The position numbers and the translations under genes were made by a program. A stretch of 63,662 nucleotides of DNA, counting the filler, from Reclinomonas americana ATCC 50394 (taxonomy: Eukaryota): the NCBI GenBank assembly GCA_048213135.1. It is 10 parts of 5 records of this genome, joined end to end, with 100 filler letters (N's around TTAATTAATTAA, not from the genome) between each part and the next. Parts side by side here need not be neighbours in the genome. Positions count along the whole stretch, not along the records: positions 1 to 14,288 come from PS015426.1; positions 14,389 to 23,719 come from PS015427.1; positions 23,820 to 32,980 come from PS015427.1; positions 33,081 to 45,891 come from PS015427.1; positions 45,992 to 47,472 come from PS015428.1; positions 47,573 to 51,283 come from PS015428.1; positions 51,384 to 52,984 come from PS015429.1; positions 53,085 to 54,673 come from PS015429.1; 2 more parts are not named here. One strand, written 5' to 3'. The notes under the pieces are model-generated. The model had not been told where the DNA came from. It did no database searches and saw only the letters and a program-made list of their open reading frames with translations. Below, one piece after another: positions 842 to 63,662 of the stretch (within the stretch, counting starts at the first letter, position 1; the number at the start of each line of letters is the position of its first letter).

Positions 842-3800
842 TCACAGTACGTCCGACAATGGTGACGAATTGCCAGTGGATCGGGGCATCGATGTGGGTC
901 CCTGCAGTTGCCGCAGAGTGTCCACGACTTGTTCCATGCTGTGCACAAAGCGCGAGTGAGTTTGGCATACCGGCAAATGGCAAATGGTGACGTCCACACA
1001 CCTCGGTCGCGTGGCCGGATCCAGTTGCAGGCACTGGTTTGTCAACGCAATCCACTCTTGCGGCAACGTGCTGCCGTCCTCGTCCACCGCAACATCGGCG
1101 TCACTCAGTTCCAGAGAGAGGCGACCGGTGGCGAGACCGTGCAGGACGGCCATGGGAGCCAGGCCGTTGAATGGTCGCTTGCGGGTCGCCAGTTCCCACA
1201 TAATGACGCCGAAGCTCCACACGTCGGCTGTGATGACAGGAGGAGAATGAGGACGACGAGAAGGCAGTGGGTGGGCAGAAGATGGCGAAGGCGGTGCACG
1301 TGTGAAGGAGTGAAGCCCACGATGCAGAATGGTCACATCACATTTTGTTCCCACAAGCCGAGGTGGAGCGATCGAGGAGCAGGTCTCGCAAACCCACACA
1401 AGAGAGAAAGGCGTGCCGTTGGAGCAACAAATATATGGTAAGCGAGAAGAGGAACATGAAGACGACATGAGTGAACAATGAAGAAGACGTGGTGGCGGAA
1501 CTCAGACGAAGGAAGAACACGTGAAGGAGTGAAGCCCACAACACACGACGCTCACGTCACATTTTGCAGGTGATTTGGATGTGAGCGCAGCATCACAACC
1601 TACGTGAAAGAAAGGTGCATCGTTGGAGCTACGATAAGACAAAGCGAAGAAGAGGAGCATGAAGACGACATGAGTGAACAAATGAAACAGAAGAGGAGGC
1701 GAAACTCAGGTAAAGACGCGAATAGAGGACGAGTGTCCCTGTGTTCACGTTGCACTCGCGCACATTTTGCAGGTGCGAGCGCAGCATCACAACCTACGTG
1801 AAAGAAGGGCGCATCGTTGGAGCTACGATAAGACAAAGCGAGAAGAGGAACATGTAAACGACATGAGTGAATAATGAAACAGAAGTGGAGGCGAAACTCA
1901 GGTAAAGGAGGCGAATAACGAATGTCGCGCCCTGTTCGCACTGCTCCTCCATATGTTGCAAAAGGATAGCATGTGAGCAGCATCGAAACACACGTCAAAG
2001 AAGGGTGCATCGTTGGGAACAGGCATTGCGAGTGCACTGAGAGAGAATTCCACCCCTCTTTCCCCATCAAACTCTTTCCCCACCCCTCTTCTCCCCACAC
2101 ACGCACCTTGCGTCGAGTACCGCGCTCCCTGCGCCAGCTCTGGCGACATGTACTGCGGCGTGCCGACACGCGTCATTGTCGCCGTGGACTCCTGCAGACG
2201 TGCGAGTCCGTAGTCGCCGACTTTTGGAGTCCACGAGTGAGTCAGGAAGACGTTGTCGCTCTTGACGTCGCGGTGCACTCTGCAGCAAGAGAATCAGGAT
2301 GTCTCTCCGGTTACCTCGTCACTCTGGTATTCTGATTGTGCATCTCGATCTCCCTCGCCCCTCACCCTCTCTCTCTCTCTCTCTCTCTCTGTCTTCTCAT
2401 TCAACGCAACAATGGCGGCTGCAATGTGTGCAGGTAGTGCAGGCCACGCGCCACGCCCAGTGCAATCGACACGGCCATTGTCGGCGTGATGGGATCTTGT
2501 CGAAACCGCACTGGATCCAGGCAGTCAGCAAGACTGCCGCGTTCGGCGAACTCGGTAATAAGAGCATTCTGCAACCGCGTCAAAGTCATTCAGAAACAGA
2601 GAAAGGACAGCGGCGAGATATATTCACACGCACATCCGACTCGGTGATCATGACACCGAGGCACGAGAGGAGGTTGGGGTGGCGCAGCGAGGCCATGACA
2701 CGCACTTCGCCAGCGAATTGCTGCATCAAGTCTGCCATGTATTCGTCCTTCGCCTCCGAGTGACCCAGTTGCCTGCAGTGCGAAAGACAAGAAAGTTACT
2801 CTATCCCGTTCCCATTCCACTCTCTTCTTTGGCGCTGTCTTCTCTCTCCCTGGGCCTCTTGTTTCCTTCTTCTCTTCATCTCTCGGACCCTCATATCTCT
2901 CTCTCTCACTCACTCTCTCCCTCTCTCTTTCTTTCTCTCTCTCTCTCACACACACACACGCACAAACTCACTCTCTTCTCACTATCACTGACTTTTCGAT
3001 CTCTTTCTCTCATAGCTTGTCTTCTTCCTTCTCATTCTTCCTTACTCTGCACCCGCACGCACCATGGAACCCGAAAGCACTTGACAGCCACACGCACACC
3101 GTGCCACGTGCCCAAGTACACGTCACCGAATGCGCCCGCACCGACACGTCGCCCGACGACAATGTCTTGCGGCTGGATGATTTGTACGCGCACGTCGTTG
3201 GGCCCGTAGCGCATGTCGAGTTGCTTGTCGGGTTGGGTAATGTACTGTACGTGCGTGGCAGAGAGGTGAGAATCGCAGGCGCGAGAGACTCGTGGATAGA
3301 AAAGTCGACGCACTCGCAAAAGTCGAGCGACGGCCGCCGATTCAGCCATCTCCATGCTGCTGTTGATGCGAATGCGCGGACTGCCCGGTGGTGTGAGCAG
3401 CGGCGATCCCTCAGACAGATAGGCTGATGCAGGATACTGGCGACTTTCTTCGATGAGGAAGAGCACCACGGTGAAGAAGCTGCAGAGGGGGACACGTAAT
3501 CAGCGACGAGTGTGCTCGGCAGAGAGACGAGACACGCACCCTAGTGTCACTGTCACGTCGTCGAGCTGCCGCGGAGAGGTGGTGATTGAGGGTAAGTGAT
3601 TGAGGGTATACAAGGCGAAGAAAAGGCACGAGCAAGTCACCAGTGTCAGGCAGTTGAGCGTGTTGTCGCCAGTGGGTGCCAGCAGCCGCGGGTTGGGATC
3701 GGGAGTCTGCAGCGGTTGGTGAGGTTAGCAGCAAGAAAGGAGCGAAACGCCTTCTTACCACTACGCACCGCATGAGCCAAAGGGACGCAGAGTGCGGCGG

Positions 3801-9621: not shown

Positions 9622-10514
9622 CTACTTTGTGCAGCTCTCTATATATTTCCCACTGATGCTGTCTGCACCATACTCTGCGCTGTCCTCTCTCCCTCTCACA
9701 CCCACGATTGCAAGCGAACATACCGGTTGGCGGCGACAATGTCGTTTTCTATGCGGGGGGCCGGCGTCCTCCTCGTGCACCTCTTCCTGCTTGCCATGTT
9801 GGTCGTCGTCGTCGCCACCACCATCGCCAATGGTGAGTCGAGTGCGCTTCAACAGTGCGCGTCTGTCCTCGCTCGCCACCTGCGCATGCATGCGCAATGG
9901 CAGCAGTGGAGGAGTGGTACCGGTGACATCGGCGAGGCGACTCGGCGGCTCAGCACCATGTGCGCGAATCCACCGACGCTCCTTGGCGCGACGGTTTTGG
10001 AACCAGATCGCCACCACCTTACTGTGGAGAGAGAGAGAGGGAAAGTGAGTGTCGATACGGAAAGATTCAACCTCTCGCACAGAGGAGTGCGCTACGGAGT
10101 GACGTGATCAAGACGCAACGAGGTGAGGTTGAGGTCGGCGGCTATGCGCGCCTTCTCTAGTGACGACGGGTACCGAGTGTGCGTGAAAAGGCACTCCAGT
10201 GCTTGCCTCTGTTTTGGTTTGTTTTTGCAGTGTGAGGGATACTTTTTTGGGAGGAAATCATCATGTCAATACGCGCGCACACACACACCTCTTGCTTGGT
10301 GAGTCGGCGTGAGGTCCACTCCTGCAGCAGCACGCGCATTCAGAGAACGTGTGTGGCACAGGGAGAGAGAGAGAGGAGATACCTGGACAAGCTTGTCGTC
10401 GTTGCCGTTCTCCTTCTCCCTCTGCTCCTCCTCGAGCTCCTCCTCCTCCTCCTCGGCCTCACAGTCATGGTACTCGCGCATGAGAGTGGGCGCATACGTC
10501 ATCGGGGCGTTCAT
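9622..10514 (-). CDS. Homeodomain transcription factor (non-TALE, Q50)
   Basis: Four exons splice to an acidic N-terminus plus EWTSRRLTKQE-RQALECLFTHTRYPSSLEEARIAADLNLTS-KVVAIWFQNRRAKERR, with the helix-3 WFQNRR signature. The 3' end is uncertain. Confidence 0.85.
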
Positions 10515-12001: not shown

Positions 12002-12035
<34 letters not shown>

Positions 12036-14240: not shown

Positions 14241-14288
<48 letters not shown>

Positions 14289-17022
14289 NNNNNNNNNNNN
14301 NNNNNNNNNNNNNNNNNNNNNNNNNNNNNNNNTTAATTAATTAANNNNNNNNNNNNNNNNNNNNNNNNNNNNNNNNNNNNNNNNNNNNAGAGAGAGAGAG
14401 AGAGGCGAGGTACAGCTTGTCGTGCTGCTGCTGAGGGTCAGGCTGCGGCGAATAGGTGCGCGTGAATGCAGAAGCTTCGATACAACTATCTGTGCGATTT
14501 TACGCATATCCTGCTGGTCATCAATAGAGAGAGAGGGAGGGAGAGAGAGAGAAGCGAGGCTTGTGTGTGCTGTTGCGTTTGATCAGGCTCCGATGGTGCT
14601 CAAGAGAAAGGGTGTGCATGAATGCAGAGGCTGTTGTTTTGATTGTCATACTGTGCTATTTTCTCGAGTACGACAGAGTGGTGCATGTGAGAAGCGCGTT
14701 GTTTTTCGCAAGTTGATGGAGAGAGAGGGAGGAGGAGAGAAAGACGCAAGATTGAGTGTGGTGCAGCTTGCCGTGTTGCTGTTGAGGGTCAGGCAGCGGC
14801 GAAGGGTGCATGAATGCAGACGCTTCGATACAACTATCTGTGCGATTTACGCATATCCTGCTGGTCATCAATAGAGAGAGAGAGAGAGAGAGAGGAGGAG
14901 AGAGAGTAGTGACGTAGGTNNNNNNNNNNNNNNNNNNNNNNNNNNNNNNNNNNNNNNNNNNNNNNNNNNNNNNNNNNNNNNNNNNNNNNNNNNNNNNNNN
15001 NNNNNNNNNNNNNNNNNNNNNNNNNNNNNNNNNNNNNNNNNNNNNNNNNNNNNNNNNNNNNNNNNNNNNNNNNNNNNNNNNNNNNNNNNNNNNNNNNNNN
15101 NNNNNNNNNNNNNNNNNNNNNNNNNNNNNNNNNNNNNNNNNNNNNNNNNNNNNNNNNNNNNNNNNNNNNAGAGAGAGAGAGAGAGAGAGAGAGGGGAGAG
15201 AGAGATGCAAGGTGTAGCTTGTTGTGCTGCTGCTGAGGATCAGGCTGCGGCGAATAGGTGCGCGTGAATGCAGAAGCTTGTCGATATCTTGCTGTATTTC
15301 AGCCGGGTTTCGTGTAGTTGTCATAATACTTATTGTTGAGGAGAGAGCTCATCAATTCTTTTCTCCTTGTCTCAGGACTTCCTCCACCCCCGCATGCGCG
15401 ACTTTATCGCCGGCAAGATCACGCTCGACGAACTGTCCAGCGACACGGGTATTCCGCGCATCCGCTGCATGCCAGTGTTCACCGAGGAGTTTGAAGAGTT
15501 GCGCTCACCATTCCCGTGCTGCTGCTCCTGTCAGATCCTCACTCACCCTGCTCACTGCACAGGAAGCTGTTGGTGGAGGTGGAGCGATTCGAGCAGCAGG
15601 TCGACGAGAGGTGTCGGCCGAATTCCATGAACAATGTTGCGTGACTGCGAGGCAAGCGAGCAGATTCAGGCAGAGTGAGCGCGCAACCGCTTACCCTTTG
15701 TTGACATGCAGGAGGGCACCGTCATGTCAGAGCTCGGCATGACCGCATTCTTCGACGCATTTGTGGAGCACTGTGCGCGTCCCATCGGCGCTCTCTTGTA
15801 CGCGGATCGCGGAGGCGCCACTCTCAACACCCAGCATTCGTTCACGGTGAAATGTTGCGTCGCCGAGTTCTCTCAGCGACGGTTCTCTCTTGCTCCTGCA
15901 CGCTCTCTCTCTCTCTCTCTCTCTGTCTGCCTGTCTGTCTCGTGTCTCTGTTTCTCTCTCTGTCTATCTCTCTCCTCCTTCTCTGTTTCTTCTCTTCTCA
16001 CTCTCTCTTGCATGTACATACACGTGCAATATCTGTCGCTCGATCCCTGTCTGCGTGCTACTCTTCCTTTCTCGCGTGCGCTATCTTTTTTTTCTTTCTT
16101 TCTTTCTCGTGGCCTTCCTGTGTCTCTCCTTCCCTCTCTCTTCCTTTTCTCACTGTCTCTCTGCACGCATGCGCGTGGAGTATCTCTCGCTGGATCCCGA
16201 TTTGCGTGCAACTCTTCCTGTCTCGCGTGTACAGTGTCTTTCTCTCTTGTCTCTCTATCTTTCTCTTTCTCATTACTCAGTCTCTAGCACTCTGTCTCTC
16301 TCAGTCTCTCTTGCTCTCTTTCTCTCTGCGTCTCTCTATCTCACACCCACAAATACAGTTCTCCCACTGCCTGCGTGCCGTCTTCCTTTCTTCCCCCTCT
16401 CCCTCCCCCCTCTCCCCCTCTCCCTCACTCTCCCTCACTCTCCCTCACTCTCTCACCCTCTCCCTTTTTCTCACTCACCTCTCAACCTCACTTTCCCTGT
16501 TTTCCGCAGACCGCCCGCAAGGCGACGTCGACCTCGACTTCCACACCGACGACAGCGAGGTCACCTTCAACGTGTGCCTGTCGCACGAATTCACCGGTGG
16601 CAATCTGTACTTTCGTGGCATTCGTGACGACCCGGCGGAGACCGGCGAGGAGTACGCCGAGTGGGCGCACCAGCCGGGAGTGGGCATTGTTGCGTTCCGA
16701 GAGCTACCGGCGTGTCGGTGTCCTCCGCTTTTTGCTTAACCCCCCGCAGGTGCACCTGGGAGCGCACAGACACGGCGCGCTGCCGATTCGCAGCGGCACG
16801 CGTGTGAATCTAATCGTGTGGTGCCGCTCGCAAGACCACCGCGTGCACGCGCTGCTGGACGTGTGGAACCAGCAGGCAGAGGTGCGCGCCGCCGGCACGT
16901 TCCCGTCGCCCGATGAGGACTCGCCCGGGGTGTGTCCGCATTGCGCCCGCCAGCATCCACCAGGCGATCACGATCGTGCCGCCGATGAGGACGGTGGTGG
17001 TGGACCGTATCCGCATGATTAA
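13244..17022 (+). CDS. 2-oxoglutarate/Fe(II)-dependent dioxygenase, OGFOD2/ICU11-like
   Basis: Seven exons join in frame: RPNSMNN, HSFTVKY, DLDFHTDDSEVTFNVCL (HxD), FTGGNLYF, HLGAHRHGA (distal His), GTRVNLIVW (Arg); TAA at 17020-17022. Confidence 0.88.
14120..15290. repeat. Intronic repeat units separated by (GA)n
   Basis: GTGCTGCTGCTGAGGRTCAGGCTGCGGCGAATAGGTGCGCGTGAATGCAGAAGCTT at ~14140, ~14420 and ~15225, with diverged copies at ~14580 and ~14775. Confidence 0.8.
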
Positions 17023-17050: not shown

Positions 17051-20000
17051 TTACTCTCCATCTCTGCTGCTGCGCCCCACCAGCGGCGACACCACCACTC
17101 GATCGGCTCCGCGGCCGACCACGCGAGTGGCGGGCGAGAGGCGGAACGGAATGCAGTTGGAGAAGTAGGGAAAGTCGAAGGAGGTGCGCTGGCCGGCGGA
17201 GACGTTGGGGACCGGCATGAGTCTGCGGGAGGGGGGGGGGGGGGGGGGAGGGAGAGGAGGAGGGGAGGGGAAGAGGGGAAGGGGATTGAGTACAAAGGAG
17301 AGCGAGGAAATGTAGTGAACAGAGAGCAGAAGGAGAGATAGACGAAGTGAAGGGGAGTTTCGCAAGAGTTTTGCAAGCTATGGAGGATCGCATTTAGTCT
17401 CTGCACCCACACGAGGGGGAAGGGTGGATACGGGGGAAGCGGAAGGGAGTGAAAAGAAAGGAGAAAGGGATACAGGGTGAGGGAAAGGGGATTGTGTACA
17501 AGGGAGAGATAGAGATAGAGAGAGAATAACGAAGAGCGAGGAAAGGGAGGGAACAGAGAGCAGAAGGAAAGTACGGACGAAGTGAAAGGGGATTCGCAAA
17601 GAATGGAGGATCGCTTTTAGTCTCTGCCCCGACAAGAGAGGGAGCTGCAAAGGCAGCATCCACAGCACTAATGAATCGTTGCAAGTGTCTACAGAGGCGA
17701 GAGAGAGAAGGAACTTCAAAGTCAGTGATGAGAGCATTGATGATTTTTTGCACGCCTGTGTGGGAAAGAGAGAGAGAGAGACAAATGAAGAGCAAGGAAA
17801 GAGTGAACACAGAGCACAAGAGAAGTAAGAAAGTGCAAGAGAGTGCACGACAAGTGAGAGTGAGTTGATCAATACAACAGAAGAGAGAAGAAGAAAGCGG
17901 GAAAGACGGGAAGAGCGAGAAAGGTAGAGGGGGAGGAGACATGCGAACGAGAAAATTAGCACTGTGATGATCGGGATAGATGCGAGTTGGCGATGAGAAA
18001 GTGATGGGCACAAGAGAAAGAGATTATCGGATTGTTTTCTCTTGTTAGAGAGAGAAGAGAGAAGGATAATGAATCGTGAGCCAATACGACTGAAGAAGAA
18101 CGACTGAGCAAGGAGCACGTAGAAGAGAGACGGAAGGGCGGAATGCGGGACGTAGTGAGAAATAATTGCACTGTACTGAGAAGGACAAGTGGGCGAGGCA
18201 AGAAAGAGAGCAAGGATGATTACACCTTCGAAAGCCTCTTATCAGGTGTGAGACATGCAAGAGAGCAGCGCAGGGCAGTTTCGCAAGCCCTGGAGGATTG
18301 GGTTTTGTCTCTGTACCCACATGAGGGGGAAGGGTGTATACGGGGGAAGCGGAAGGGAGTGAAAAGAAAGGAGAAAGGGGTACAGGGCGAGGAGAGGGGG
18401 TGGAGGAGGGAAAAGGGAATGAGTACAAGGGAGAGAGAAAATAACGAAGAGCTAGGGGAGAGAGTGAACGAAGTGAACGGCGAGTTTCGCAAGGTATGGA
18501 GGATTGGTTTCGAGGGAGCTGCAAAGGCAGCATCAACAGCATTGATAATTTGTTGCAAGTGTCTACAGAGGCGAGAAAAGAGAAAGAGGGAACTGCAAGG
18601 GCAGTATCAACAGCATTGATGAATCGATGCAAATCTCTGCAGAAGAGAGAAACCGCGCTTCTGCCGACCTATGGTTGCCCTTTCCCTCTCCATACCTGGC
18701 CGTCAACTGCTTGTTCAAGCGCAGCGACAGCGCCGCCACATCGTGCATCACCCCCGCAATCGCCTCCGCCGTCGAGTCCCACAAAATCGGCACAGTGTCC
18801 AGCCTGCACCAACATGAGAACGACGTAATCCCTGCTGTGTGCACCTGAGCCACACTCACCCGGTTGCGCACACTGCGCTGAACGACAGCAGCTCGGCCAC
18901 CGTGTACCGCGACTCATCAGCACGCTGGCACAAAATGTTATCCTCCAGCACCGGCAGCATGACGCCGTTGAAGCCCGTGTGCAGGAAGTTCGCTCTACAC
19001 ACGGTTCACGATGACATATCCGTCACGATCATGCTACAACCACGCTCACACTACTCACCGCTCCAACACCGACGTGAGCAGGGCCACTGCCGAGAGCGTG
19101 CCTGGGTCGCCAAAATGCTCCACTCCCATGCACTCAATGCCGCCACCGATCGAGTCCCTTTGTTGCGGGAAGGGTGCAAATGAAAAGTCGAAGCCCTGCA
19201 TTCACGAGAAATTGAGATGACTCCTGTATACAACAGGCATAAGGGTGCTCACCTTGAATGTCAGGCCAAACTCCCTGGCGATTTCGTCGACTGCCGGCTG
19301 TAGCACGGTCGCGTGCTGCTCGATGAGTGCCTGCAGCTTGGCGGCGCCGTCGTCCAGCGATGCAGCGTCGGTGAAGGCCTCGGAGACTGTGGTAGGTAAA
19401 GGTGAGCACGTGGGGGAAAAAGGAAGGGAGGTAACGAGAGGCGCACCGAGGTTGGCGCATTGCAGCGCAATGGCAAAGCAGTCGCCGTCGCTGTTGTTGC
19501 CCGAGTGGAACGAGCCGGGGAAGAAGGGGTTCTGCGGAGGGAGATAAGGAGAAGGGAGAAGAAGGGAAAGGGGAAGGGAGAAGGGGACAGGGGAAGGCAG
19601 GGGATAGGAGTGAGGGGAGAAAAGAAAGGAATGAGGTGGAAACAGGGAGAGGAGGAAGGGGACGGGGGAAACGAGGGAGGAGCTTCAAGAGGAGTACACA
19701 TGAACAGGGTAACAACAGAATGGATGGGCAGAGGAGAATGGGCGAGAGGATGAATGAGAAGAAAAGAAGAAAGAGCGACTGATTTGAGGAGAATGGGCGA
19801 CAGGCTGGACATGAAAACAGAAGAAGAGAAGGATAGGAGAGAGTTCGGAGGAGAATAAGAGGGCGACGAAGTGACCGAGGCAGGGGGATAGTGAGATGTG
19901 CCAGCAAGGCGAGAACGAAACAAGGGTCACACAAGAGATGTGCAATTGATTAAACAGTACACATGAGCACAGGGACTGACTAGGCACTGAAAGTAAGAAA

Positions 20001-20878
20001 GAACTGGACAGTCACTCAAAAAATAAATGAAAAAGAGAGAAGAAAAGGAAAGGGGAAAACGAATGCGTTAAATATGTCCCAATAGCGCTCAAAAGCTTGA
20101 GAAATGCGAGCGTGGGAAAAATTGCAAGTGTCACTCAGAAGTAAACAGACAAAGAGTGTATCTGAAGACAACAAATGCCTTGAGTCTGTCCTCTAACAGC
20201 GTGGAAACACGCTGGCCAACACTCTGACACCTCGAGAAAGGTGAAAGAAAGAGAGAAACGTCAAGAAAATGCGCAAACTTTCTCTTTGTCACGCACGCAG
20301 CAGATTCTCAGCATCACGCAACAAAGGGCCGCACTTGCGCCAGTGCCGAGAAACGCAAGTTGCCAAAACCGCCCGAGGCGTGCTCCGAGTCCAGTTCGGC
20401 GATGCGACGCACCGCAGCTGCGGCTTGTTGCACGCAGTCACCGTGAACTCTGTGGAATTCGATTCAGGCATCGACACAGACGGAGCGACACAAGGGTAGT
20501 GCGCGAAACTTGTCATCGGCGGTGAGTTGCGCACACACAAAGCATGACGAGGTCTGCACAAAGGAAGCCTTCGTGAGTGACGGGAACGAGGAGGAAGAGA
20601 GCTGGAACGGCGGACCTCTCGAATAATGTCGCTGACAAACTCGTACGAGCGCGGACAGTGAGACAGCGCGGCGCCCAAGCCGATGCATTGGAAGCCGATG
20701 GCTGCGGATAAAAAGGGAATGAGAAATAAGGAAAGAGGGAGTAGAAGCGGCGACACGCACCTTTGAAGCGCGCCTCCACGTCCGTCACCAGCGCCAGCAC
20801 GCGCTTGCGGGCGTCGTCCAACTCGCCCGACTCGGTGTCCACCAGGAGTGGAAAGTGTGATGTGGAGAAGCGCACGGT
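17051..20878 (-). CDS. DUF711 (UPF0210) family protein; first exon not located
   Basis: Spliced motifs: NLRFSALAQVRPF-NPFFPGSFH, FAIALQCANL, GFDFSFAPFP, FGDPGTLSAVALLT, GFNGVMLPVLED, FSAVCAT-GLDTVPI, DVAALSLRLNKQLTAR-LMPVP..FDFPYFSN; TAA at 17051. Confidence 0.85.
17340..18660. repeat. Composite repeat filling the last DUF711 intron
   Basis: Two copies of GAGGGGGAAGGGTG..TACGGGGGAAGCGGAAGGGAGTGAAAAGAAAGGAGAAAGGG (~17410, ~18320) and several GCAGCATC..CAGCA.TRATGAATCG.TGCAAGTGTCTACAGAGGCGAGA units. Confidence 0.75.
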
Positions 20879-40691: not shown

Positions 40692-42835
40692 TCATTGGTT
40701 GATGTTGAAGTCATGCGTCTCGATCTGTTCTGCGCAGTCTTTTGTGTGCTCCGATTGACAGGCGACCGCGACACGGATGACGCGAGGAGGTGAGGTGAGT
40801 GGCTGCAGAAAGCCAAGGGAGGCGCGTCTGGCACTGCTGAACGTATGTCTCACCAAGCACAGCAACAAGCTGAATGCACAGCAACAAGAGAAACACATGT
40901 TCTTCTCCATCCTTCTCCTCTCCACAAACAAACTCTTGCCTGCAATGATCACACGAGCTCTTCTCTCTGTCTCTCTCCCCCTCTCTCAACACACACCATT
41001 CATCCTTCTTCTCTTCCTTCCTCTCATCTCCCACACGACAACACAAAAAATCACATTGGCTGTCGATGTTGTTATTACGCTGCTCTTTTTTTTTCCTTCT
41101 CATCAGTCACTCTCTCAATGGCCTCCCTACGTGTGTCAGCGTCCTCACACTAGAACGGGCACGGGCCACCGCAGCGGTCGTCGGCGATGTTGACCGTCGT
41201 CGACACAGCGCGCACCTTTATTTACCAGAGAGAGCGAGCACATGAGCAGAGAGCGCATCACACACACACACGCACAGAGGCACGCAACAGTCACTGGCAC
41301 GGGGTCGGTCACCTGTGTCCACAACACACAAAAAAGATGGCGCCATTTCCGTGAGTGTGAGACATGTTTTCCGCCCCACCCCTGTTCTCCACGCACGCAA
41401 CTGTGACCACGGCGTCGGTGGGGGCGGTGGGAATCGTTTGCGGCTGCTCCATGGGTGATTGACGCAAAAAAAATGAGTGTGTGCGTGTGAAAATTGGTGT
41501 TCAAATGTGGAAGATGATAATGGTGATTTATTGTTTGTGGCCACACACTCTCTCACTGAGTGGAGTTGAGGGCGGGGGTGCTGTAGGGGGGCACAGTGGG
41601 GGCTCAGAAGGGAGCGCCGCCCTGCACGTCGCACATCTGCCACACAAAAAGATAAATGTGAGCCGACTCTCTCTCTCTCTTCATGCGCAACAAACAAACA
41701 CACCAATGACACGTCGTGCACTCACTCCTCCACTGCGAGAACATGCGTGCGTGTGCGTGGCGAGAGGAGAGGCTGTCATGAAACGCGGAAGAAAACAACA
41801 AGAGTGCTTGTCCACTTTTGCAAGTGAAGAAACAGGCATGCTCACACGCAAGCAGAGGAGCGCCCCACTGCTGTGCAAGGAGTGCGTGCGTGCGTGCGTG
41901 CGTGACAGGGGGAGTGAAAGGGGGAAAAGACACGAGGAACACGCATTTCAAGACCTTGTGCTTTCGCTGCTTCTCTTCGCTCTCCTCCTCCGTTGGTGTG
42001 CGCACGAGCGTGTGTGAGGGGAGGAGGAGTGGGGGAGGAGGAGAGAGGGAGGGCGAAAGAGAGGAAGAGAAGAGAGAGGGAGGGGGGAAGAGAGGAAGAG
42101 AGGAAGTGTGAAGTGCAAAGTATTGAGTGTGCGCACACTCTCTTCCTCTCTCTCTTCCTCCATCTCACACACAGAGAGGCATGGGACCAGTACGCATACG
42201 AGCACGCGCACGGAAGAATGCAGGAGGACTGCAGAGAGAGAGAGAGAGCTGAGAAACAGTCGTGCCCGTGTACTCTCTTCCTCCCTCTGTCTTCCTCCCC
42301 GCCTCTCCCGCACACTCTCACTTTCACACATGCATAAGCAGCATGTGCGCACACGCGCGTGAGGACGCAGGAGTAGACGCAGAGAGAGGTTTGCGTTCGC
42401 ATTCTCGCGTGCATGAGTGCATTCTGTTGCCTCTCTCTCTCCTTCTCCCTCCCTCGCTCGCACACACACATACACACATACACACACACAGCCGCAACCA
42501 CAGCCACAGACGTAGACACAGAGACACTCTCTAACTTGTTGACGCAAATGAACCGTGTGTCCCTCCCCTGCTTCTCTCTCTCCTCTCCTTCTCCCTCTCT
42601 GCCCTTCTCACACGCAACTCGGCTGCCGTGGTGCGCAGAGGCATCGTCCGCAGACGGGGTCGAGGGGGCGTGCGACTGGGGCGCGGCGCAGTCCGTGGGG
42701 ATCTGGCAGAAATACTGAGGGGAGAGGGTGAGGTGAGGAGGTGAGGAGGTGAGGAGGTGTGGAGGGGAGGAGGAGGAGGAGGAAGGCGAGAAGAGATGAA
42801 CGCACGTCAATGCTCACAACGACGGTGTTGTCCAT
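40692..42835 (-). CDS. Possible small multi-exon Pro-rich hypothetical gene
   Basis: GC-rich islands at ~42620-42715, ~41560-41620, ~41400-41455, ~41150-41200 and ~40700-40850 with donor-like ends (GTTGCG at ~42618 and ~41401). No confident continuous frame. Confidence 0.25.
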
Positions 42836-43622: not shown

Positions 43623-45850
43623 TGTCGCCCTCCACACTGACTCTGCCGGCTGGCCTGTCTGTGGCCACGTCGCAGAGTGTGGATCTGACGTTTAGCCCGG
43701 CGGCCACCACTGCTGGTGTGCTTAACGTGTACAACACTCCCACCTGCTCCGGCCTCGCCCCCACGACGTTGGTGTACACGGCTGCCAATGCTGCGGTCAT
43801 CAACGTCCAGTTTGTGACCACGCTGGAGACTGGTAGCACCACGCGCTATCTGTGCTTTGACGAGGATGGTGCCGGCCCGCTGGCTTACCAGAACGTGGCC
43901 ACGATTTACATTTGTTGCGTGATGCTTATTTATCTGGCATGTTCATCAACAAGAGACCGTGTCCACTCATCACCACGGCGCGTTCACACAGACACCAAGT
44001 CCGACTTGAGCACCTCCGTGCTGGCACTTGGTCTCTCCGCCTTCCCCGTGACTGTCGGCGGTCAGAACTTTGGCTTGCCCTCGACAGCTAGTTTCTTCTT
44101 GTCGGTGGCGAGCACGTGCGCGGCGCCCCTGGCCAACTCGGCCGTCTCTTTCGTAGGAGTCAGCTTCACGACCATTCGCCTCGCCATCTCCACCGCATCC
44201 ACCTTTGGTCTCGCCTCCACTCAGGCCGCCGCCGATGGCACGGGTGCTTGCACGCTCGCCGCTGCCGGTCCTGCGTACCTCTGCGGAACGTTGCGTCCTC
44301 TTTGTCACCGCTGCCCTCGGCACTTGCATTATCACTGAGTTGGTGGTGTGCAGCNNNNNNNNNNNNNNNNNNNNNNNNNNNNNNNNNNNNNNNNNNNNNN
44401 NNNNNNNNNNNNNNNNNNNNNNNNNNNNNNNNNNNNNNNNNNNNNNNNNNNNNNNNNNNNNNNNNNNNNNNNNNNNNNNNNNNNNNNNNNNNNNNNNNNN
44501 NNNNNNNNNNNNNNNNNNNNNNNNNNNNNNNNNNNNNNNNNNNNNNNNNNNNNNNNNNNNNNNNNNNNNNNNNNNNNNNNNNNNNNNNNNNNNNNNNNNN
44601 NNNNNNNNNNNNNNNNNNNNNNNNNNNNNNNNNNNNNNNNNNNNNNNNNNNNNNNNNNNNNNNNNNNNNNNNNNNNNNNNNNNNNNNNNNNNNNNNNNNN
44701 NNNNNNNNNNNNNNNNNNNNNNNNNNNNNNNNNNNNNNNNNNNNNNNNNNNNNNNNNNNNNNNNNNNNNNNCAATCACCTACGCGCAGCCGTTCAGCAAG
44801 GTGCCACGGTTCCTGTTCGGTTTCGCAACGTACACGGGTGCCTCGCTCAATGGCGCTGTTGCCGTCGACACCAACTTTGCGTGCACGGTGTTGAGCAACT
44901 TGACGTCGTCCACCGGCAATACCATCAGCTGCAGCTCGGCTGGTGCTGCGACGAGCAGCACCGTGATTCGTTGCGTCTTTGTGCAGGCAGAAGGGGGGGT
45001 TGCAATACTGCCTTTGACTCTTGCATCACAAAACTCCCTCTGTCTCTCTTTCTTTCTGTCTCTCTGTCTCTCTCTGTCTCTCAATCTCTCTGTCTCTCTC
45101 AGTCTCTTTCTGTCTCTCTCAGTCTCTCAATCTCTTTTGCACTCCTCCTCTCTCTTTCTCTCTCTCTCTCTCTCCCTCAGCATGACTGAATCTCTCTCTT
45201 TTTTATGACGCAGAGTCGCTCTCTTTCGCTTGGTTCTTCAACATGTGCTCCTTGCTCTCCTTTTGCCCTGACTTTCTGAATATTACAACTGGACTCGGCT
45301 CTTCCTCTGTAATGCAGAGTCGCTCTCTTTTGCTTGATTTTTTCAACATCTATTTGCCCCAAAACTCTGAATACTGCAGTTGGACTATGTTACCTCATCT
45401 ACGGCGATGTGCAGAGTCCTTCATCACCTGCTCTGTCACTGTTATTCAAGCGTGCTTAGTTGACACTGAGAATGTTGTCATTTCTCTCGTTCACACGCAG
45501 TTTGAAAAAACCCTTTCTTCTCGGTACTTCTTCATTACCGACGACTGACAACCCACCCTCCTGCCATTTCCAACTTCTAATGTGATAGTTGTCGGGAGAA
45601 GAACGATTAGGAACCAACTCATCTCAATTTTGTCGTCTCCTATCGTTCAACTTTTGAATACTTGTCCCCCACTTTGCCAATCTTATCTACACACACTCCT
45701 CTTCCTATAACTCAGCCATTTACCAAACCTCGCTGTGCAGAGTACCTGGCATTCGCACAGGCAAGCAGCATGGTCAGCGCCAATGGCCTGGTGAGCCGCT
45801 CCAACAGCAGCGCCTGGAACTCGACGTCCACCAGCAAGAACAGCACTCTG
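43623..45850 (+). CDS. Internal exons of a Ser/Thr/Ala-rich, beta-strand-like secreted or surface protein
   Basis: Coding-like exons at 43623-43913, 43992-44289, 44772-44969 and 45741-45850 that join in frame where testable. Repeated module ending YLC; ITYAQPFSKVP resembles the H-type-lectin-like IxFxxPFxxxP motif. Both ends lie in gaps. Confidence 0.65.
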
Positions 45851-46072
45851 GTTGCGTGCCACCTGCAATGCATTTTCTGGCAGTGCGTAGGNNNNNNNNN
45901 NNNNNNNNNNNNNNNNNNNNNNNNNNNNNNNNNNNTTAATTAATTAANNNNNNNNNNNNNNNNNNNNNNNNNNNNNNNNNNNNNNNNNNNNCTGTGCGTG
46001 AGAGAGAGAGAGAGAAAAGGTGAGCACCACCTGTTGTCGACAGCAGAGGAGAGACATGTGCGCTGGAACTGA

Positions 46073-49000: not shown

Positions 49001-52000
49001 GTCCTCGCGCCACAGGTAGTCGTAGCGGCGGAATGTGTCCAGGTACTCCATCACCTGGCGACGCAGGCCGTGGACGCCGCCCGTCAGCGTCAGCACCGTC
49101 TTGGCGATCTGCCGGCTGCGAGCAATCTGCACAAAGTACGAGTTCTGCGGGGACGGGAGGGAGAGAGGCAGAGAGAGAAGAGTGAGCACAAAGAGACAGA
49201 GCGAGCAAGGCGTTAATCACTGACTGACCTGTGGCGTGCGATCAGCGGCACCCCACACAAAGACGTTCTTGCTAATGTCGAACACGACATTGGCCACCGT
49301 GTTGACGGCCTCCTGAATCTCGTCGAGCGACGGGTTCATCACGTAGTTCGGCTTCAAGAACTCCACGTCGACCTCAAACAGCGGCGAGTCGACGCGCAGG
49401 TTGCCGTCGGCGTCGTGCGAGCCAATGCGCGACTTGAGTTGGTGCAGCGACTGGGTGGTGGCCGCCAGAATCGAGCGGAACATCATCTGGCCGTAGTGCG
49501 ACAACACCAGCTTGACGTCCTTTTGCGACACGGTGCGCTCCGGATCGTCGAACGGGAAGTGTGTCGCCAGGTCGATAATGTCCTCCACGGCTCGTTGCAC
49601 CTCAATGTTCTTTTGTGACAAGAACTGTAGTGGAACTCATGTCAGCCGCTGTGGTTGGATAGAAAGCGATGACATACCCGTCGTCTCCCACTCACCTCTG
49701 TCTGCGCAGCGGCGTGACGCTGCTGCATGCTGATGAACTGGTCAATGGTGAACGACTCGCCCTTGGGAATGTCGACCAGGGTGACGTTGCTGATGACGGC
49801 CAGGTTCGAGTCGATGCGGTTCTGGATCACATCGTTGACCTTGATGACCAGCTCCTCCAGCTTCGCCACGCCAGCGTGGATCTTCAGCAGGTAGCCGTCA
49901 ATGTTCATCGAGTTCCATGTAAGCAGCACCATGCCGGGCAGGATCTTGCGGTCCAAATCCTCAATGTGCGGCTCCAACAGTGGGCGCACCACCGTGTTGA
50001 TGCGGCTCGTGACGCGCTCGTACTCCTTGATGGCGTACGTCAGTTGGTTCTTGTAGCGCTGCGCATTGGAAACAGTGATAAGTGGGAGGGCGGAGGTGGG
50101 GAGAGGCGAGGAGAGGACAAAGGAGGACGTAACCTTGAACTTCTCCTCCTGCAGCAGCACCATCTTGGCGCTGTCGGGCACCTCGATGCCGAGGCGCAGC
50201 AGCCACTTGGTCTCGCGAATCAGCTCCAGAATGGCATTGTCAAAGTTGACGTGCAGGCGGCCGGTCTCGGCATTGCGCACAATCAGCGTCGCCTGCAGGC
50301 CCGACTTGGACGTCTCAATGTGACGCACCCAGGCCGTGTGCCAGATGGTCTCGAACTCGATCAGCGCACGCGCCACGCGGTTGTACGTCTTGATGATCTT
50401 GCTCGAGTCCTTGGCGTTCATGATCTTGTCGTTGTCCTGGAACTTGAGCATGGGCTCTTCGATGCGGCGGTACAACTGACGCGACCAGATAATGTTGCCG
50501 GCCACTGGCGGCGCATTGCGGATGAGTGGTGGGTTGTGCTTGTGGCGCTCGTACGCCTTTTGCACTTGCTCCAGATCCTGGCCGTACTGGTGGAAAATCA
50601 GCATGTACTTGTTGTCGAGGCCCGCCTGTCATCACGCATGGGGTTTAGTGTCACGCGACATCACAACCATGGTGACTTGTGTGTGCGCCGCACCTTCAGA
50701 TTCTCGCGTTGCAGAATCGACTGGAACTTGCGCAGCAGGATCAGCGAGTCCTCCGTGCTGCGAATGTTCTCAAAGCTCGAGTTGATAAACACCTGCAAAC
50801 GGTGTGAGATCACTGCAACGTCGGTCCTCCCCTCCTTCCCTCCCTCTCTCCGTCTCACCTGCAGCGAGTTCTCAAACATCTCAATCTGCTTCTGGAACTC
50901 GGCATAGTCCTTCTCAAAGTACGCATTGTCCTCCACCAAATTGTAGCGCTTGTTGCGCATCTTTTCGACCTCGTCGAGGAAGGTCTTGGTGAGACTCTCC
51001 ATGCCATCAATCTTGTGCTGCACACACGCGGGGGAGCACAACAGCCACGGTAAGCAACATAGTGGAACAAAGAGTGGCAAACGCGCACACAAACCTCAAT
51101 CAGAGTCATGAACTGCTTGACAGTGCGGAACATGTCCATCAGTTTGCGGAGACGCACGCAGAACCGATCAAACTTCTCAAAGATGGGCACGCGCTCCAGC
51201 TCAAATGAGCGTCCGCGCGGCTGTGTCATGAGCTTCTCCTGCAGTCACGAAGAGCGAGTGAGCGCGCGCGCGGAGATGTCGGCNNNNNNNNNNNNNNNNN
51301 NNNNNNNNNNNNNNNNNNNNNNNNNNNTTAATTAATTAANNNNNNNNNNNNNNNNNNNNNNNNNNNNNNNNNNNNNNNNNNNNCTTGCCGCTCACACGCT
51401 GTTTTCTTCGCACAGGATTGTGGATCAGAAGAACTTGCCGGGCTCGAAAATCATGCTGGGTGTGTTGCAATACGCACGAGCCAACTCACCCGTCATGCGC
51501 CGATGGAAGGGCTTTGATGGCGACATTACCGACGCCCTCAACGAAGCCAAGGACAATGTCCGCTTCCTCACCCAACTCGACAAGTTCTTGGAGCCGCTGT
51601 ACAAGGGTAGCCCGCGATCAATTATCGACGCCCTGCCAGCGCTGATGAACAATCTGTACATTATGCAAAGTGTGGCGCGCTACTACAACACCAAGGGTAC
51701 GGAAGAAGGAGAGAACGTTCCCCCCACTGATGTGTATGATGAACTCACACTCGCCGGTGGCGATTTGGTGCGCAGACAAGATGACGACTCTGTTCCGCAA
51801 GATCACCAACCAGCTGGTGGCGAACTGCAAGCAGAGCATCGAGGCTGGCGGTCGAAATCTGTGGGAGCACAATCTCGACGAGCTGCTCGACACACTGGAC
51901 TGGTGCTGCCGCCTCAACATTGCCTACCTCGAGCAGTTTGAGAGCTTGAGAGTTGAGTATTCACTCTCCTCTGCTGCTGCTNNNNNNNNNNNNNNNNNNN

Positions 52001-52845
52001 NNNNNNNNNNNNNNNNNNNNNNNNNNNNNNNNNNNNNNNNNNNNNNNNNNNNNNNNNNNNNNNNNNNNNNNNNNNTCGAACCAAGTGGGGGCAACACGCC
52101 GGCATTGTCAAAACGCAACGTGTTGAACTTGCCGGTGCGCTCCTTCCAGTACTCCAGCTCGGTGTGCGGGCCAGCCTCTGGAGCCTCCTTGCGCGCGTCA
52201 GCGTCGGTCAACAGCTTCTCCACCGTTGAAATCCAATCCTCCAACACGTCTACGCACAAAGAGAAAGAGAGTGAGAGACAGGGAGAGGGAGGGAGAAGCA
52301 AGTGCGATTATCGCAACTCTCAAAGTGCGCCACGGCCGACTCGTTTTGTGCCAGCTGAATGTACCCAGATGGAGTATTGTCAGCGTCGGCAATCACCGAG
52401 TCCTCGGGTTGGCGCAGTTCCACGCCATCGCCCACCACCGACACCACCTCGCCGAGTTGCTTGGTGAACTTGTGCACCGAGGTGAGGTACTCCTGCACAC
52501 ACACACACAGAAACGATGATGATGATGAATGAGCATATTGCCGAGTCCAGGTGGCCAGCTCGGACCAAGAGAGAACAAACCTCGGTTTCTGGCTGCGGGT
52601 TCTTGCCCCAGTCCTCCTTTTGCCGCAACGCCGGCAGATAAACGTGCTCCAGCAACAAGCCGAGAGTGGGAATCACCTTGCGATCCGTCTCACCCACCAG
52701 CAAATCCTGAATCATGTCGTGCTCGCGCAAACCCACTGGCTTGCTCTCCTTGGCGCGCACGAAAAACACCCACTTGGTCGCCGAACCTCCGCCAACCCCA
52801 GCCGCAGGGTTGTCCAATGAGGCGACTTGTACGTGTCGACCATCT
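46073..52845 (-). CDS. Axonemal outer-arm dynein heavy chain, gamma type (DNAH5/DNAH8/ODA2-like); tail to AAA1, partial
   Basis: [80 protein letters not shown]-loop [30 protein letters not shown]. Two exon blocks (47590-48091, 51416-51951) lie on the + strand. Confidence 0.93.
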
Positions 52846-53119: not shown

Positions 53120-53277
53120 GTCTGCAGCTGGTCTCCCGCGCAGGTACCTTTGTGCTTGGCGTCCTCATTGCAAGACTCTCGTCACCCGAGGCCTTTGGAG
53201 TTGCATACTCGCTGTGTGTGCGCGCATGTGTGTGCATGTGTGTGACTGAATGTGTGTTTTTGACAAAGAGAGATAGA

Positions 53278-53308
<31 letters not shown>

Positions 53309-54673
53309 TCTGTGTGTGCGCGTGTGTGTGTGCACTCGCAGAGAATACTCACTTCTTCTTCTTCTTCTTCTTCTCCATCGTCTTGTTGTTGTACAGGTGG
53401 CATACATTGAGTTCCACGTGTTGAATGCGACGGTGTTGTTTTTGGCGCGCGAAGGCCTCCGACGCGCCTCCACACGCAATGCTCTGGGCACACAGCGCAG
53501 TGGCGGCGACATTCACGATCCAGCCGCAGTGGCGATTCTGCAGCGCAACGCGCAGCTGTCGTTTGTGTCGATTGCGTTGGCGGCGGCTGTGTCGAGTGTG
53601 GTCGCGGTGGTGTGGGTGCACTCGTGGCCGCACCGCGTGGTGCTGTTCGCCTCGTGCGTGGAGATGTGTGGCGAGCCGGCGTATGTGTGTGCGCAGAACA
53701 TGCTGTGGTTCCGACCGCGAGTGCGCGCCGAGGGCTGGTCCTTGTCGGCGCGCGCACTTGTCAACTTGTCGCTGCTGGCCGCGCAGGTGTTTGACGATCA
53801 GCGCATGGCGTTTGCTGTCGGCTTCCTCGTGCATGCGCTGGTGTCGGTCACGGTGTTGACGTGGTATGCGGTGGTGGAGTCGAGAGCGGTCGGGTTGCCG
53901 GTGCAGCACTGGTTGCGACCGCGTCTGCGAGTGCGAGGGCCCGAGTCGAGCGGCAGCGGCGACACTATTGGTCGCTTGTGGGTGGTGTTGACTGCGCAGT
54001 CGTTTGTCAAGCATTTGCTCACGGAGGGCGAGAAGATGGTGCTGATGGTGATGGTGAGTGTTGACAGTGACGAGAGGTTGGCGGCGGCACAGGGCGCGTA
54101 CGCGCTCGTGAGCAACCTGGGCTCGCAGGTGGCGCGTGTGCTCTTTGCTCCCATCGAGGAGCAGTGTCACACGGTGTTCTCGAAGCAGTTGGCGGAGCAG
54201 GCGGTGCGGACGGTGCAACTGGCCACTCGCGCCATGTCGCTGGTGGGCCTGCTCTTTGCCACCTTTGGTCCCCCCTACAGTCTGCTGCTGCTGCGCATTC
54301 TGTACGGGGCCAAGTGGAGTGACGGAACGGAGGCCCCGAAGGCACTCGCTGTCTACAGCGTCTACGTGCTGTTCATGGCCGTCAATGGCGTCACCGAAGC
54401 CTACGTTCATGCTCGAGCGTCGGCGACGTACTTGGTGCGCCTCAACTGGCTACTCGTGACACTGTCGGTCGTTCACGTGGCCAGCTCCATGTGGCTTCTT
54501 GCCGCCTACAGCACTGTCGGGCTGATTGTCGCCAACATGTTGAATGCCGGACTGCGCATCACTCACAGCTTGTACTTCGTGGGCTGGTCGCATGTGCGCG
54601 TGCTCTTTCCGCGCAGTGTTACACTCGGTGCGTTCACCGTGGCATCGGCGTTCACAAACCTGGCGTCTTCGTT
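53120..54673 (+). CDS. RFT1: RFT1 (Man5GlcNAc2-PP-dolichol translocation protein), partial
   Basis: LQLVSR, LFLAREGLRRA, QSFVKHLLTEGEK, QGAYALVSNLGSQVARVLFAPIEE, MAVNGVTEAY, GLIVANMLN..LRI; many TM segments. Ends lie in gaps. Confidence 0.92.
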
Positions 54674-62085: not shown

Positions 62086-63662
62086 CGGGGAGGGAGAATA
62101 CGAAGATTTGGAGGAAGATGAGGAGTACGAGGAGGGAGTGGATGATGACGAGGACAATGAGGAGTACTACGATGGTGAAAACGCGGACGACGAAGAGGGC
62201 GAGTACGGTGGTGAGGAGGGCGAGGAGTTGGATGCAGGCGACGACGAGGGAGCAGTGAGTGGCGCTGGTGCAGTGGGCACGACGGCTGCGGCGCCCGCTC
62301 GGCGACCTCCATCAGTGCGGGTCGCGGGCAAAACTGCCGGCGGTGGCCTTGCGATTCCACCACCGGTGGTGCTGCCGTCGGCCGCGACCAGGGCATCCCG
62401 CGCTGCACGTCGAGGGGCGAGATACAACGGCAGACTGCCAGTGTTTCCACCGAACTTCAATGCGGAGAGCATCGTAGACAACGCCATTGGTCCTGCCTCG
62501 AACAGCGTGGACGCGAGGTCTCGAAGCCAGCCTGCAGGTTCGCGAGTGACAATCAAGACCAGCACCACCGGCGTTGGTGGCCTTCGCGTGCTGTCCACCG
62601 ATGTGATTGTCGGTGATATTCAAGTTACGTGTCCGCACACGCATCGCCGCCAACGCCTCTTGCAGTGATCTTACTTGCTCATCCTTGCACAGCCTGTCGC
62701 CCCGTCTGCAGTACCGCCACCTCCACTTGCACCTCCAGCAGCGGCTGCGCGTTCTGCGTCTGTGCCGAGGAAGAAGCGCAAGAAGACCGCCAAGTCTGTC
62801 AAGTTAGCCGCGGAGCCAGAGGTTGGTGATGTGAATGCGAAAACCTCCCTTCAGCCCCCAACTCACTATTGTGTGTGTGCTGGCAGGTGCCACCAGAGGC
62901 TGCACTGCGGCAGCGTCGACGCAGCTCCGGAACTCTGGCGGCGTCGTCTTTCCCGACATCCAGCTTCGCTGCTGCTGCGTCCGCACCGGTCTCGTCGTCC
63001 AACGCTGCTGGCACGACTGCTTCCAGCGGCGAGACGAAACCGGCTGCTCGCAAGAAGGCCACCAAGAGCGACAAGGAAGGCAGCGGCGGCGGCGGCGGCA
63101 AGAGTTGCGTCTGATTTGCGACTGAATGCATGTGAGGTGGTGTGCACTCACACTCACCGTGACAGAGAGAGGTGGTCGTCCGGTGTATTCGGCCGTGTTT
63201 CCAGAGAACGAGCGCGGGCAGAAGGAGGCCTTCTTTGCGGATGCTACGCGCACCAGCAACCCGCACTTTGTGTACGCCAATCTAAAGAAGGCGCAGTCGT
63301 TGCTGGCGACCTTTGCCGTGGTCTCCAACAAGTACGTCAAGCAGGCCGAGTACATTCTCAATCGCGTGATCGAAGAGTACGGCTCGGAGAGCGCGTATCT
63401 GGAGCAGAGGTGTGAAGTTCGCATGGGAGGCTGGGAGCGAGAGTGTCGACTCACACAACTGTTTGTTTGTTTGTGTGTGCGCAGTCAAGGGGAGATATTG
63501 ACGACCAACGAGAGTGTCCGCGTATTCCAGTACTACCTCCAGCTGCACAGAATACGCTGCGAGATTCGACTGGTGACCGACAGTGCGTCGCCCACCAGTT
63601 TCAAGAACGGCTGCCTCTACGTGCGGTGAGCTGGCGTAGCAGGAGGGTTTTCTGTGCGCCAA
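62086..63662 (+). CDS. MATCAP/KIAA0895 (DUF1704)-family tubulin tyrosine carboxypeptidase-like protein, partial
   Basis: Acidic and low-complexity N-terminus, then PENERGQKEAFF..SNPHFVY..SNKYVKQAEYILNRVIEEYGSESAYLEQSQGEILT, matching my recollection of the MATCAP pre-catalytic region. The HExxxH motif would lie beyond the window. Confidence 0.72.

Follow-up and report, generated by a model that had tools for sequence, protein, structure and literature searches.

Introduction

The register in which U1 small nuclear RNA (snRNA) pairs with the 5' splice site, and the G at intron position +5 that belongs to it, are treated as near-universal, and departures are known mainly as rare human sites that were studied singly. 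The closest described cases are the human shifted-register (+1) sites (Roca and Krainer 2009, as cited in PMC4856993) and the registers with a bulge at +3 (or +2) (Roca et al. 2012; Tan et al. 2016, PMC4856993). All validated noncanonical registers together make up 1.5% of 201,541 human sites (PMC4856993). Here we describe a class of 5' splice sites beginning with GTTGCG in 63,662 nucleotides (nt) of DNA from Reclinomonas americana ATCC 50394 (assembly GCA_048213135.1), the whole of which is called the window below. As its shifted-register oligonucleotide, PMC4856993 prints ACAGUCAAGUAUA and not GUUAAGU, the form given for rare mammalian sites in a preliminary description of the window.

Judged from reading frames and homology, donors of the form GTTGCG(T) are genuine and common, and the cut falls before the GU of GUUGCGU. 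We consider it probable, with considerable room for doubt, that these donors belong to true GT-AG spliceosomal introns and form a second tightly defined 5' splice-site class, /GUUGCGU (the slash marks the cut), with the minor forms GUUGAG, GUUACG, GUUUCG and GUUGCA, which is recognized in a register shifted by one base.

As in the human shifted register, the would-be last G of the exon serves as intron position +1 and the downstream G/U lies one base further in, and the printed human example, ACA/GUCAAGUAUA (PMC4856993), also has a base other than G at -1. Unlike the human sites, the class here accounts for about 13–29% of the predicted donors in the window and has a strict heptamer of its own. 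The human example pairs with U1 over a long stretch (-6.5 kcal/mol measured; PMC4856993), whereas GUUGCGU is predicted to make almost no pairing with a standard U1. With the bulged registers the class shares the one extra nucleotide between GU and the downstream G/U, but the missing G at -1 is at odds with a register left as it was. A known principle, the displacement of cleavage from the recognition register, would here define a major class that has a strict consensus of its own.

Being a minority class with its own donor consensus beside the main class, it also resembles GC-AG and U12-type introns. Its donors, however, begin with GT instead of GC, and its 3' ends look like those of the main class. 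U12-type donors carry the motif /RTATCCTT, which the GTT-class donors do not resemble. In the full-text literature we found no description of a GTTGCG-type donor class, figure logos and supplements being unsearchable.

Results

The preliminary description listed 19 introns that begin with GTTGCG, and the motif is present at all 19 coordinates on the strand given (Table 1). T is found at +7 in 15 of the 19 and G at -1 in 1. The window contains 57 copies of GTTGCG, in comparison to 36.9 ± 6.3 in 100 dinucleotide shuffles, none of which reached 57, and the excess of about 20 copies is the size of the listed set. The hexamer is not striking by itself (rank 628 of 4096 in a Markov-2 k-mer ranking), and global k-mer excess was rejected as a diagnostic, since (GA)n repeats and codon bias outweigh everything else in it.

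Homology or profile support was obtained for 11 of the listed sites, four in an OGFOD2-like gene, two each in a dynein and a pectinacetylesterase-like (PAE) gene, and one each in a homeobox, a DUF711 and a protein kinase gene. For six others (30064, 31127, 43914, 44290, 44970 and 63104) the sole basis is an in-frame gene-finder model, and for 26307 and 45851 it is the motif with the local reading frame. The earlier view of GTTGCG as the ordinary donor (GTGCG, GTGAG or GTACG) with an extra T and an invariant G at +6 was supported. Among the sister forms proposed along with it, 51952 (GTTGAG) and 53200 (GTTGCA) gave the best junctions with homologues, whereas 37644, 62624 and 39127 were seen with the gene finder only.

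Junctions were tested without an assumed donor signal: for neighbouring exon pairs, all frame-compatible GT or GC donors were combined with nearby AG acceptors, and the joined translation was scored against relatives. For the OGFOD2-like gene we used a hidden Markov model (HMM) built from 110 of 151 relatives (P0131 and 150 from a representative search), namely those of 250–520 amino acids (aa) that matched the window. The five-exon model with the junctions listed earlier scored 260.8 bits. Each of its four junctions was compared with 17–36 frame-compatible GT/GC-AG alternatives, and in three of them the GTTGCG form was top-scoring. The junction at 15498 was the best of 32 alternatives (next best 253.2 bits); that at 15854 was the best of 23, its split codon T/AC giving a Y aligned to the Y of P0131; and that at 16689 was the best of 36 and was also picked by a gene finder blind to the donor. 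At 15636, with 17 alternatives, a GC donor and an acceptor each 3 nt downstream reached 261.4 bits; the GTTGCG junction is ungapped in comparison to P0131.

In the kinase gene, positions 81–116 of the Pkinase profile lie upstream and 119–177 downstream of the join at 2410; the unspliced frame meets a TGA 11 nt past the donor, and no other GT is nearby. At 10119 the Pfam Homeodomain match is gapless: the exon finishes with profile positions 8–40, position 41 falls on the split codon, and the match resumes at 42 in the following exon. For the DUF711 donor at 20322, profile positions 148–183 and two further residues are followed by 186–211 (NPFFPG...) in the next exon, running from 185 directly to 186. 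The gene finder preferred the upstream GTGCGG at 20334, use of which would cost four DUF711 profile positions. The exon matches to DUF711 at 20322 are weak singly (E = 0.11 and 0.13) and are collinear with three stronger exons.

The PAE profile reaches 73–74 at the end of the exon before 33988, a donor chosen by both gene-finder runs; as this intron is itself in frame and open, reading frame alone is no proof. The frame of the small exon 34051-34092 fits in a four-exon model, and the next small exon ends at an ordinary GTGCGC donor. The model reads ...SSDTNVNPDFHDFT/MVFVPYCDG (NVNPDFHDFT-MVFVPYCDG), with 26 residues over 25 profile positions (75–99). A PDB sequence search with the short PAE exon gave chance matches only.

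The dynein junction at 52317 was the best in both homologues that have high-scoring segment pairs (HSPs) on either side (P0013, 130 vs 119; P0020, 133 vs 125), and the donor-blind gene finder chose it as well. At 52119 the best join in three of three homologues crosses a gap to a mis-oriented piece. The sister donor at 51952 was the best in three of four homologues, with query residues 400 and 401 contiguous; the HSPs of the fourth skip an exon. Removal of the intron at 50133 raised the summed score of four homologues from 3600 to 3740, the top value among all in-frame pairs; no other GTT-class donor with homology support has G at -1. The Rft1 junction at 53200 was the best in the three homologues processed. 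Intron removal thus left an open frame collinear with homologues at 11 of the 19 listed sites and at three sister sites.

Two other placements of the cut were tried and rejected. GC-AG introns (GTT/GC) scored 6.6–7.6 bits worse in three of the four OGFOD2 junctions and tied in one, and at dynein they were 8–11 alignment points lower at 52317 and 11 lower at 52119. An exon that keeps the G, with an intron from TT to one base past the AG, would be mechanistically unprecedented and would replace the Y of 15854 that aligns with P0131.

Tandem candidate donors were observed at 20322-20334(-), GTGCGG followed by GTTGCG; at 41396-41401(-), GTTGC followed by GTGCGT; and at 51088-51094(-), GTTTGT followed by GTGCGC two codons further, where the homologue scores for 51094 and 51088 are close (133 vs 130, 166 vs 154 and 138 vs 135). 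These pairs could be alternative 5' splice sites.

In all introns with both ends assigned, the ends are GT...AG. The lengths are 55–131 nt in 20 short GTT-class introns and 43–117 nt in 53 ordinary ones, and the base composition is the same. Ordinary introns are short, start with GTGCG, GTGAG or GTACG and have a YTNAY-like branch motif near the 3' end. By eye and with a simple regular expression, the 3' ends of both classes were found to be equally C/T-rich and to hold branch motifs such as CTCAC, CTGAC, TTAAC and TTGAC. When the bodies of these 20 and 53 introns (at most 140 nt) were compared, mean local alignment scores were 8.26 within the GTT class (maximum 16), 7.38 within the ordinary class (maximum 20) and 7.77 between them. 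Since the bodies are no more alike within a class than between classes, they are not copies of a mobile element (introners). GTT occurs in all three codon phases, and is therefore a signal and not coding.

For frequencies, a Viterbi gene finder was used with codon log-odds, a length prior and an acceptor matrix from 18 homology-supported acceptors. In its donor-blind run a donor had to be GT, or GC at a penalty, and nothing more; of 14 introns with homology support, this run found 9 exactly and missed 5. A finder with codon bias only and no acceptor model over-predicted with a light intron penalty (351 introns, both strands) and under-predicted with a heavy one (39 introns), and coding potential trained on dynein, in which G+C at third codon positions (GC3) is 82%, was weak for other genes. 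With strands resolved, the donor-blind run gave 90 donors, of which 89 were GT. G stood at +5 in 49 of the 89 (27.5 expected from all 6,988 GT sites in the window), GTT-N-[not G]-G was found in 12 (3.3 expected; p = 1.2e-4) and GTTGCG in 7 (0.73 expected; p = 9e-6).

A second, semi-supervised run was aware of the class: G at +5 and T at +3 with G at +6 received an equal bonus, and the exon side was unconstrained. Of the 100 donors predicted in this way, 73 were ordinary, 22 belonged to the GTT class and 5 to neither. In the genes where all junctions could be checked against relatives, the GTT share was 4 of 14 (dynein) and 4 of 4 (OGFOD2-like), values biased upward because both genes were in the earlier list. 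Overall, about one predicted intron in five belongs to the class. The preliminary description had raised the case that GTTGCG might be no commoner than independent positions predict; the product of their frequencies (0.36, 0.34, 0.26 and 0.39) predicts about 1.2 per 100 donors, and 21 were seen.

To compare the registers, 29 GTT-class and 71 ordinary donors were used, mostly gene-finder calls. Two ordinary calls that conflicted with homology-supported sites (15489 and 51936) had been dropped and seven GTT-class donors, taken from the earlier list or our own checks, added by hand (15498, 10119, 52119, 51952, 20322, 26307 and 45851); 20334 was kept among the ordinary donors although the DUF711 profile favours 20322. 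G at -1 was found in 51 of 71 ordinary donors and in 3 of 29 of the GTT class (Fisher p = 1.9e-8), a depletion that the preliminary description had not reported. Among homology-supported donors the counts were 10/10 and 1/14 (hypergeometric 14/C(24,11) = 5.6e-6). A at -1 in 14 of the 29 mirrors A at -2 in 29 of the 71. For the exon bases of the GTT class at -2 and -1, the log2 likelihood was -112.9 with the ordinary profile slid by one base and -148.5 with the profile in register, i.e. 35.6 bits better when slid. On the intron side, the GTT class has G at +6 in 29/29 (by definition), U at +7 in 25/29 and G at +5 in 0/29. The two classes can be written as G-G-T-G-C-G-T and G-T-T-G-C-G-T, one letter apart, with the cut before the first GT.

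The GTT class is stricter than the ordinary one, with G at +4 in 23/29, C at +5 in 26/29 and U at +7 in 25/29; at the matching ordinary positions G at +3 was found in 43/71, C at +4 in 27/71 and U at +6 in 37/71. It comprises 21 GTTGCG and 2 GTTGAG donors, in comparison to 20 GTGCGN and 14 GTGAGN among the top 15 ordinary hexamers. Pairing was predicted with the 5' 11-mer of a standard U1 (PMC4856993), which may not be the host's own, using ViennaRNA duplexfold, a calculation that ignores pseudouridine and proteins. The mean energy was -6.24 kcal/mol for ordinary donors, with the canonical register in 56/71, and -2.48 kcal/mol for 800 random GT sites. At the GTT-class sites, where energies were near zero, the canonical register was taken in 3/29. 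An Rfam scan of the window for snRNAs gave no match at the gathering score, and none of the 16 matches at E <= 1 was an snRNA.

GTT-class donors were also clustered by gene (statistic 16.58 vs 12.16 +/- 1.07; reached in 0 of 5000 permutations). Their share was 5/5 in the OGFOD2-like gene (15268-17022, +) and 4/5 in the gene or genes at 43.6-45.9 kb (43623-45891, +), and 0/5, 0/4 and 0/4 in three other regions (e.g. 54774-57231, -). Because it is based on gene-finder calls and hand-added sites, this clustering is a lead and not a result.

The window is eukaryotic nuclear DNA with a G+C content of about 55% (N excluded) and 30 runs of N, and it is purine-rich overall on the + strand (G 17848 vs C 14596, A 13761 vs T 12525). 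Nine identical artificial spacers, contig-joining linkers with stops in all six frames, account for the excess of TAATTA (36 copies, 1.2 expected). Genes were placed by a Pfam scan of 396 stop-to-stop open reading frames of at least 70 aa (Table 1). The closest similarities were 56% for dynein (to a cluster that includes a Cymbomonas protein), 36% for Rft1 (Palpitomonas) and 69% for one OGFOD2 exon (a land-plant protein, Kalanchoe). Among metagenome contigs no close relative was found, the best matches being 48% and 42%.

The pieces 51384-51981 and 47573-48128 carry dynein exons on the + strand, opposite to the remainder of the gene. Apart from that, the exons follow the same order as in homologues, and these pieces read as mis-oriented contigs; neither order nor orientation can therefore be relied on across the spacers. 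Around the gap 48129-48619 the dynein protein lacks about 270 residues. Low-complexity (GA)n/(CT)n-type sequence is very abundant (both-strand hexamer counts: AGAGAG 747, GAGAGA 779) and fills long introns, e.g. at 15900-16500, 2330-2400 and 34260-34760. Codon bias differs strongly among genes: dynein (46071-52786) and Rft1 have the GC3 of 82%, and the OGFOD2-like exons score near zero with a dynein-type codon table despite their homology support. A hairpin of about 100 nt (42070-42177) matches many unrelated microRNA precursor models on both strands at 23–33 bits, in comparison to gathering scores of 60–105, and is probably just an inverted repeat.

Table 1. Donors, introns, genes and spacers in the window. 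In the donor column a slash separates exon from intron; runs are those of the gene finder.
Feature	Position	Strand	Length (nt)	Donor	Remarks
OGFOD2-like intron 1 of aligned part	15498..15562	+	65	aga/GTTGCGCT	
OGFOD2-like intron	15636..15711	+	76	aat/GTTGCGTG	
OGFOD2-like intron	15854..16509	+	656	aat/GTTGCGTC	CT-rich
OGFOD2-like intron	16689..16749	+	61	att/GTTGCGTT	
Protein kinase intron	2280..2410	-	131	att/GTTGCGTT	
Homeobox intron	10022..10119	-	98	ctc/GTTGCGTC	
DUF711 intron	19532..20322	-	791	ttt/GTTGCGTG	GTGCGG 12 nt upstream
PAE-like intron	33988..34050	+	63	tct/GTTGCGTC	
PAE-like intron	34093..34152	+	60	cga/GTTGCGTT	followed by small exon 34153-34186
Dynein intron	52250..52317	-	68	aga/GTTGCGAT	
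Dynein donor into gap	52114..52119	-		cac/GTTGCGTT	acceptor 51415 on mis-oriented piece
Dynein sister donor, GTTGAG	51952..51957	+ (mis-oriented piece)		aga/GTTGAGTA	acceptor 51239(-)
Dynein in-frame intron, GTTACG	50059..50133	-	75	aag/GTTACGTC	not in preliminary description
Rft1 sister intron, GTTGCA	53200..53396	+	197	gga/GTTGCATA	A at +6
Dynein intron, ordinary-class example	50626..50693	-		aag/GTGCGGCG	best with 3 homologues
Intron	31127..31193	+	67	gca/GTTGCGTG	in-frame join; both runs; no homologue found for gene
Intron, Ser/Thr/Ala-rich gene	43914..43991	+	78	ttt/GTTGCGTG	in-frame join; both runs
Intron	63104..63165	+		aga/GTTGCGTC	donor in both runs, acceptors differing (63165 or 63204)
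Intron	30064..30129	+	66	gaa/GTTGCGCA	in-frame join; semi-supervised run only
Intron just before gap	44290..44353	+		aac/GTTGCGTC	semi-supervised run only
Donor	44970..44975	+		ttc/GTTGCGTC	semi-supervised run pairs it with 45740; several acceptors possible
Possible intron	26307..26364	+	58	aca/GTTGCGGC	local in-frame join; in neither run
Possible donor into spacer	45851..45856	+		ctg/GTTGCGTG	motif present
Two extra predicted introns	41401-41313, 41288-41216	-		GTTGCGTG	gene finder only; flanking exons (41216..41401) score weakly; not in preliminary description
Extra GTTTCG donors	7882(-), 15307(+)				gene finder only; not in preliminary description
Protein kinase gene	~845-2550	-			Pfam scan
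Homeobox gene	~9600-10260	-			Pfam scan
OGFOD2-like dioxygenase gene	15300-17020	+			Pfam scan
DUF711 gene	~18570-20880	-			Pfam scan
GBP-like GTPase gene	22220-24580	+			Pfam scan
PAE-like gene	33780-37940	+			Pfam scan
NUDIX gene		-			Pfam scan
Outer-arm dynein heavy chain gene	46070-52790	-			Pfam scan
Rft1 gene	53090-54670	+			Pfam scan
Spacers 1-5	14289-14388, 23720-23819, 32981-33080, 45892-45991, 47473-47572		100 each		N44-TTAATTAATTAA-N44
Spacers 6-9	51284-51383, 52985-53084, 54674-54773, 61986-62085		100 each		N44-TTAATTAATTAA-N44

Discussion

The loss of G at -1, together with the fit of the exon bases to the slid profile, favours a one-base-shifted register over a bulged T. In such a scheme the first donor reader would see one motif, G-[G/U]-U-R-N-G-U, in both classes. 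With G as the second letter, the GU would lie one base in and the first G would stay exonic, which gives the ordinary G/GUGCGU. With U as the second letter, the sole GU would start at the first G, so that cleavage would fall one base upstream and the G/U would come to lie at +6/+7. At catalysis, the extra U would have to be accommodated between the GU and the G/U that pairs with U6.

Several observations weigh against this interpretation. All junctions were inferred from sequence (frames, homology, profiles and gene models), and the register sets consist mostly of our own gene-finder calls, with seven donors added and two dropped by hand. The slid profile is only 3 bits above a uniform model, and the exon side shows the lost G at -1 more than a new signal gained; 50133 (aag/GTTACG) breaks the -1 rule. 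With the standard U1 11-mer the mean energy of the GTT class was -1.67 kcal/mol, weaker than that of random GT sites, and the minimum-energy duplex was in the shifted register at only 10/29 sites. If the sites compensated towards a standard U1, A would be favoured at +5, contrary to the C that prevails there.

The preliminary description had concluded that the class implies either routine shifted-register recognition or variant U1/U6 snRNAs. The one-base shift was borne out on the exon side, but given the weak predicted pairing, the sequence by itself does not imply that an ordinary U1 routinely pairs in the shifted register. By these predictions the 5' end of a standard U1 would not suffice to explain a motif of this strictness, and a lineage-specific U1 5' end, a U1 paralogue, U6 or proteins could be the readers.

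A dedicated or lineage-altered snRNA, i.e. a U1 paralogue complementary to GUUGCGU or a U1 adapted to GUGCGU with one mismatch in the shifted class, is an explanation that we regard as rather unlikely. It would account for a class far stricter than the ordinary donors, for predicted standard-U1 binding below that of random GT sites, for the much stronger preference for GCG over GAG and for the concentration of these donors in certain genes. Against it stand the window, which holds no snRNA gene, the clustering test, which was built on gene-finder calls, and the U1 5' end itself, which is among the most conserved RNA sequences of eukaryotes. In its fullest form, for which we see a slim chance, there would be a two-register 5' splice-site code in which gene-clustered introns are read through a strict GUUGCGU by a dedicated snRNA (a U1 paralogue or an altered U1/U6). 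If true, such a code would be a third spliceosomal mode of donor recognition beside the U1/U2-type and the U11/U12-type.

A single bulged U at +3 (or +2) within an otherwise normal register, with U1 pairing at -1, +1 and +2 and resuming at +4, is improbable. This register is known in human sites (PMC4856993, Figure 1C legend). It accounts just as well for the G at +6 and the U at +7, and every model requires a bulge of this kind at the catalytic step with U6; however, pairing of C9 with G at -1 should keep that G favoured, in contrast to its observed fall, and the in-register exon profile is the clearly worse one.

Misplaced junctions or an artefactual T (GC-AG introns three bases in, nearby GTs or a homopolymer error) are very improbable. 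In their favour, a GC donor would keep the frame at all sites and does equally well in one OGFOD2 junction, a GT of ordinary appearance lies 5–12 nt from 20322 and from 41401, and the scaffold is poor (runs of N, linker spacers and mis-oriented pieces). Against them, the GC donor loses in the other three OGFOD2 junctions and at 52317 and 52119, the GTT is kept in all three codon phases, the profile at 20322 is contiguous with the GTTGCG donor only, a sequencing error would leave G at -1 and affect more than GTGCG-type donors, and the long dynein and Rft1 exons are free of frameshifts.

The one-base-shifted class has a practical consequence for annotation, as a gene finder that has learned only one donor matrix will put its junctions in the wrong place; this happened in our donor-blind runs for 5 of the 14 introns with homology support. 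If perhaps one-fifth of the introns in the genome carry the displaced motif, the class would be a natural large sample for how the cleaved bond is fixed independently of first recognition and for how U6 tolerates an extra base. Since such sites are rare in humans, the class in R. americana could help to show how the cut site is chosen.

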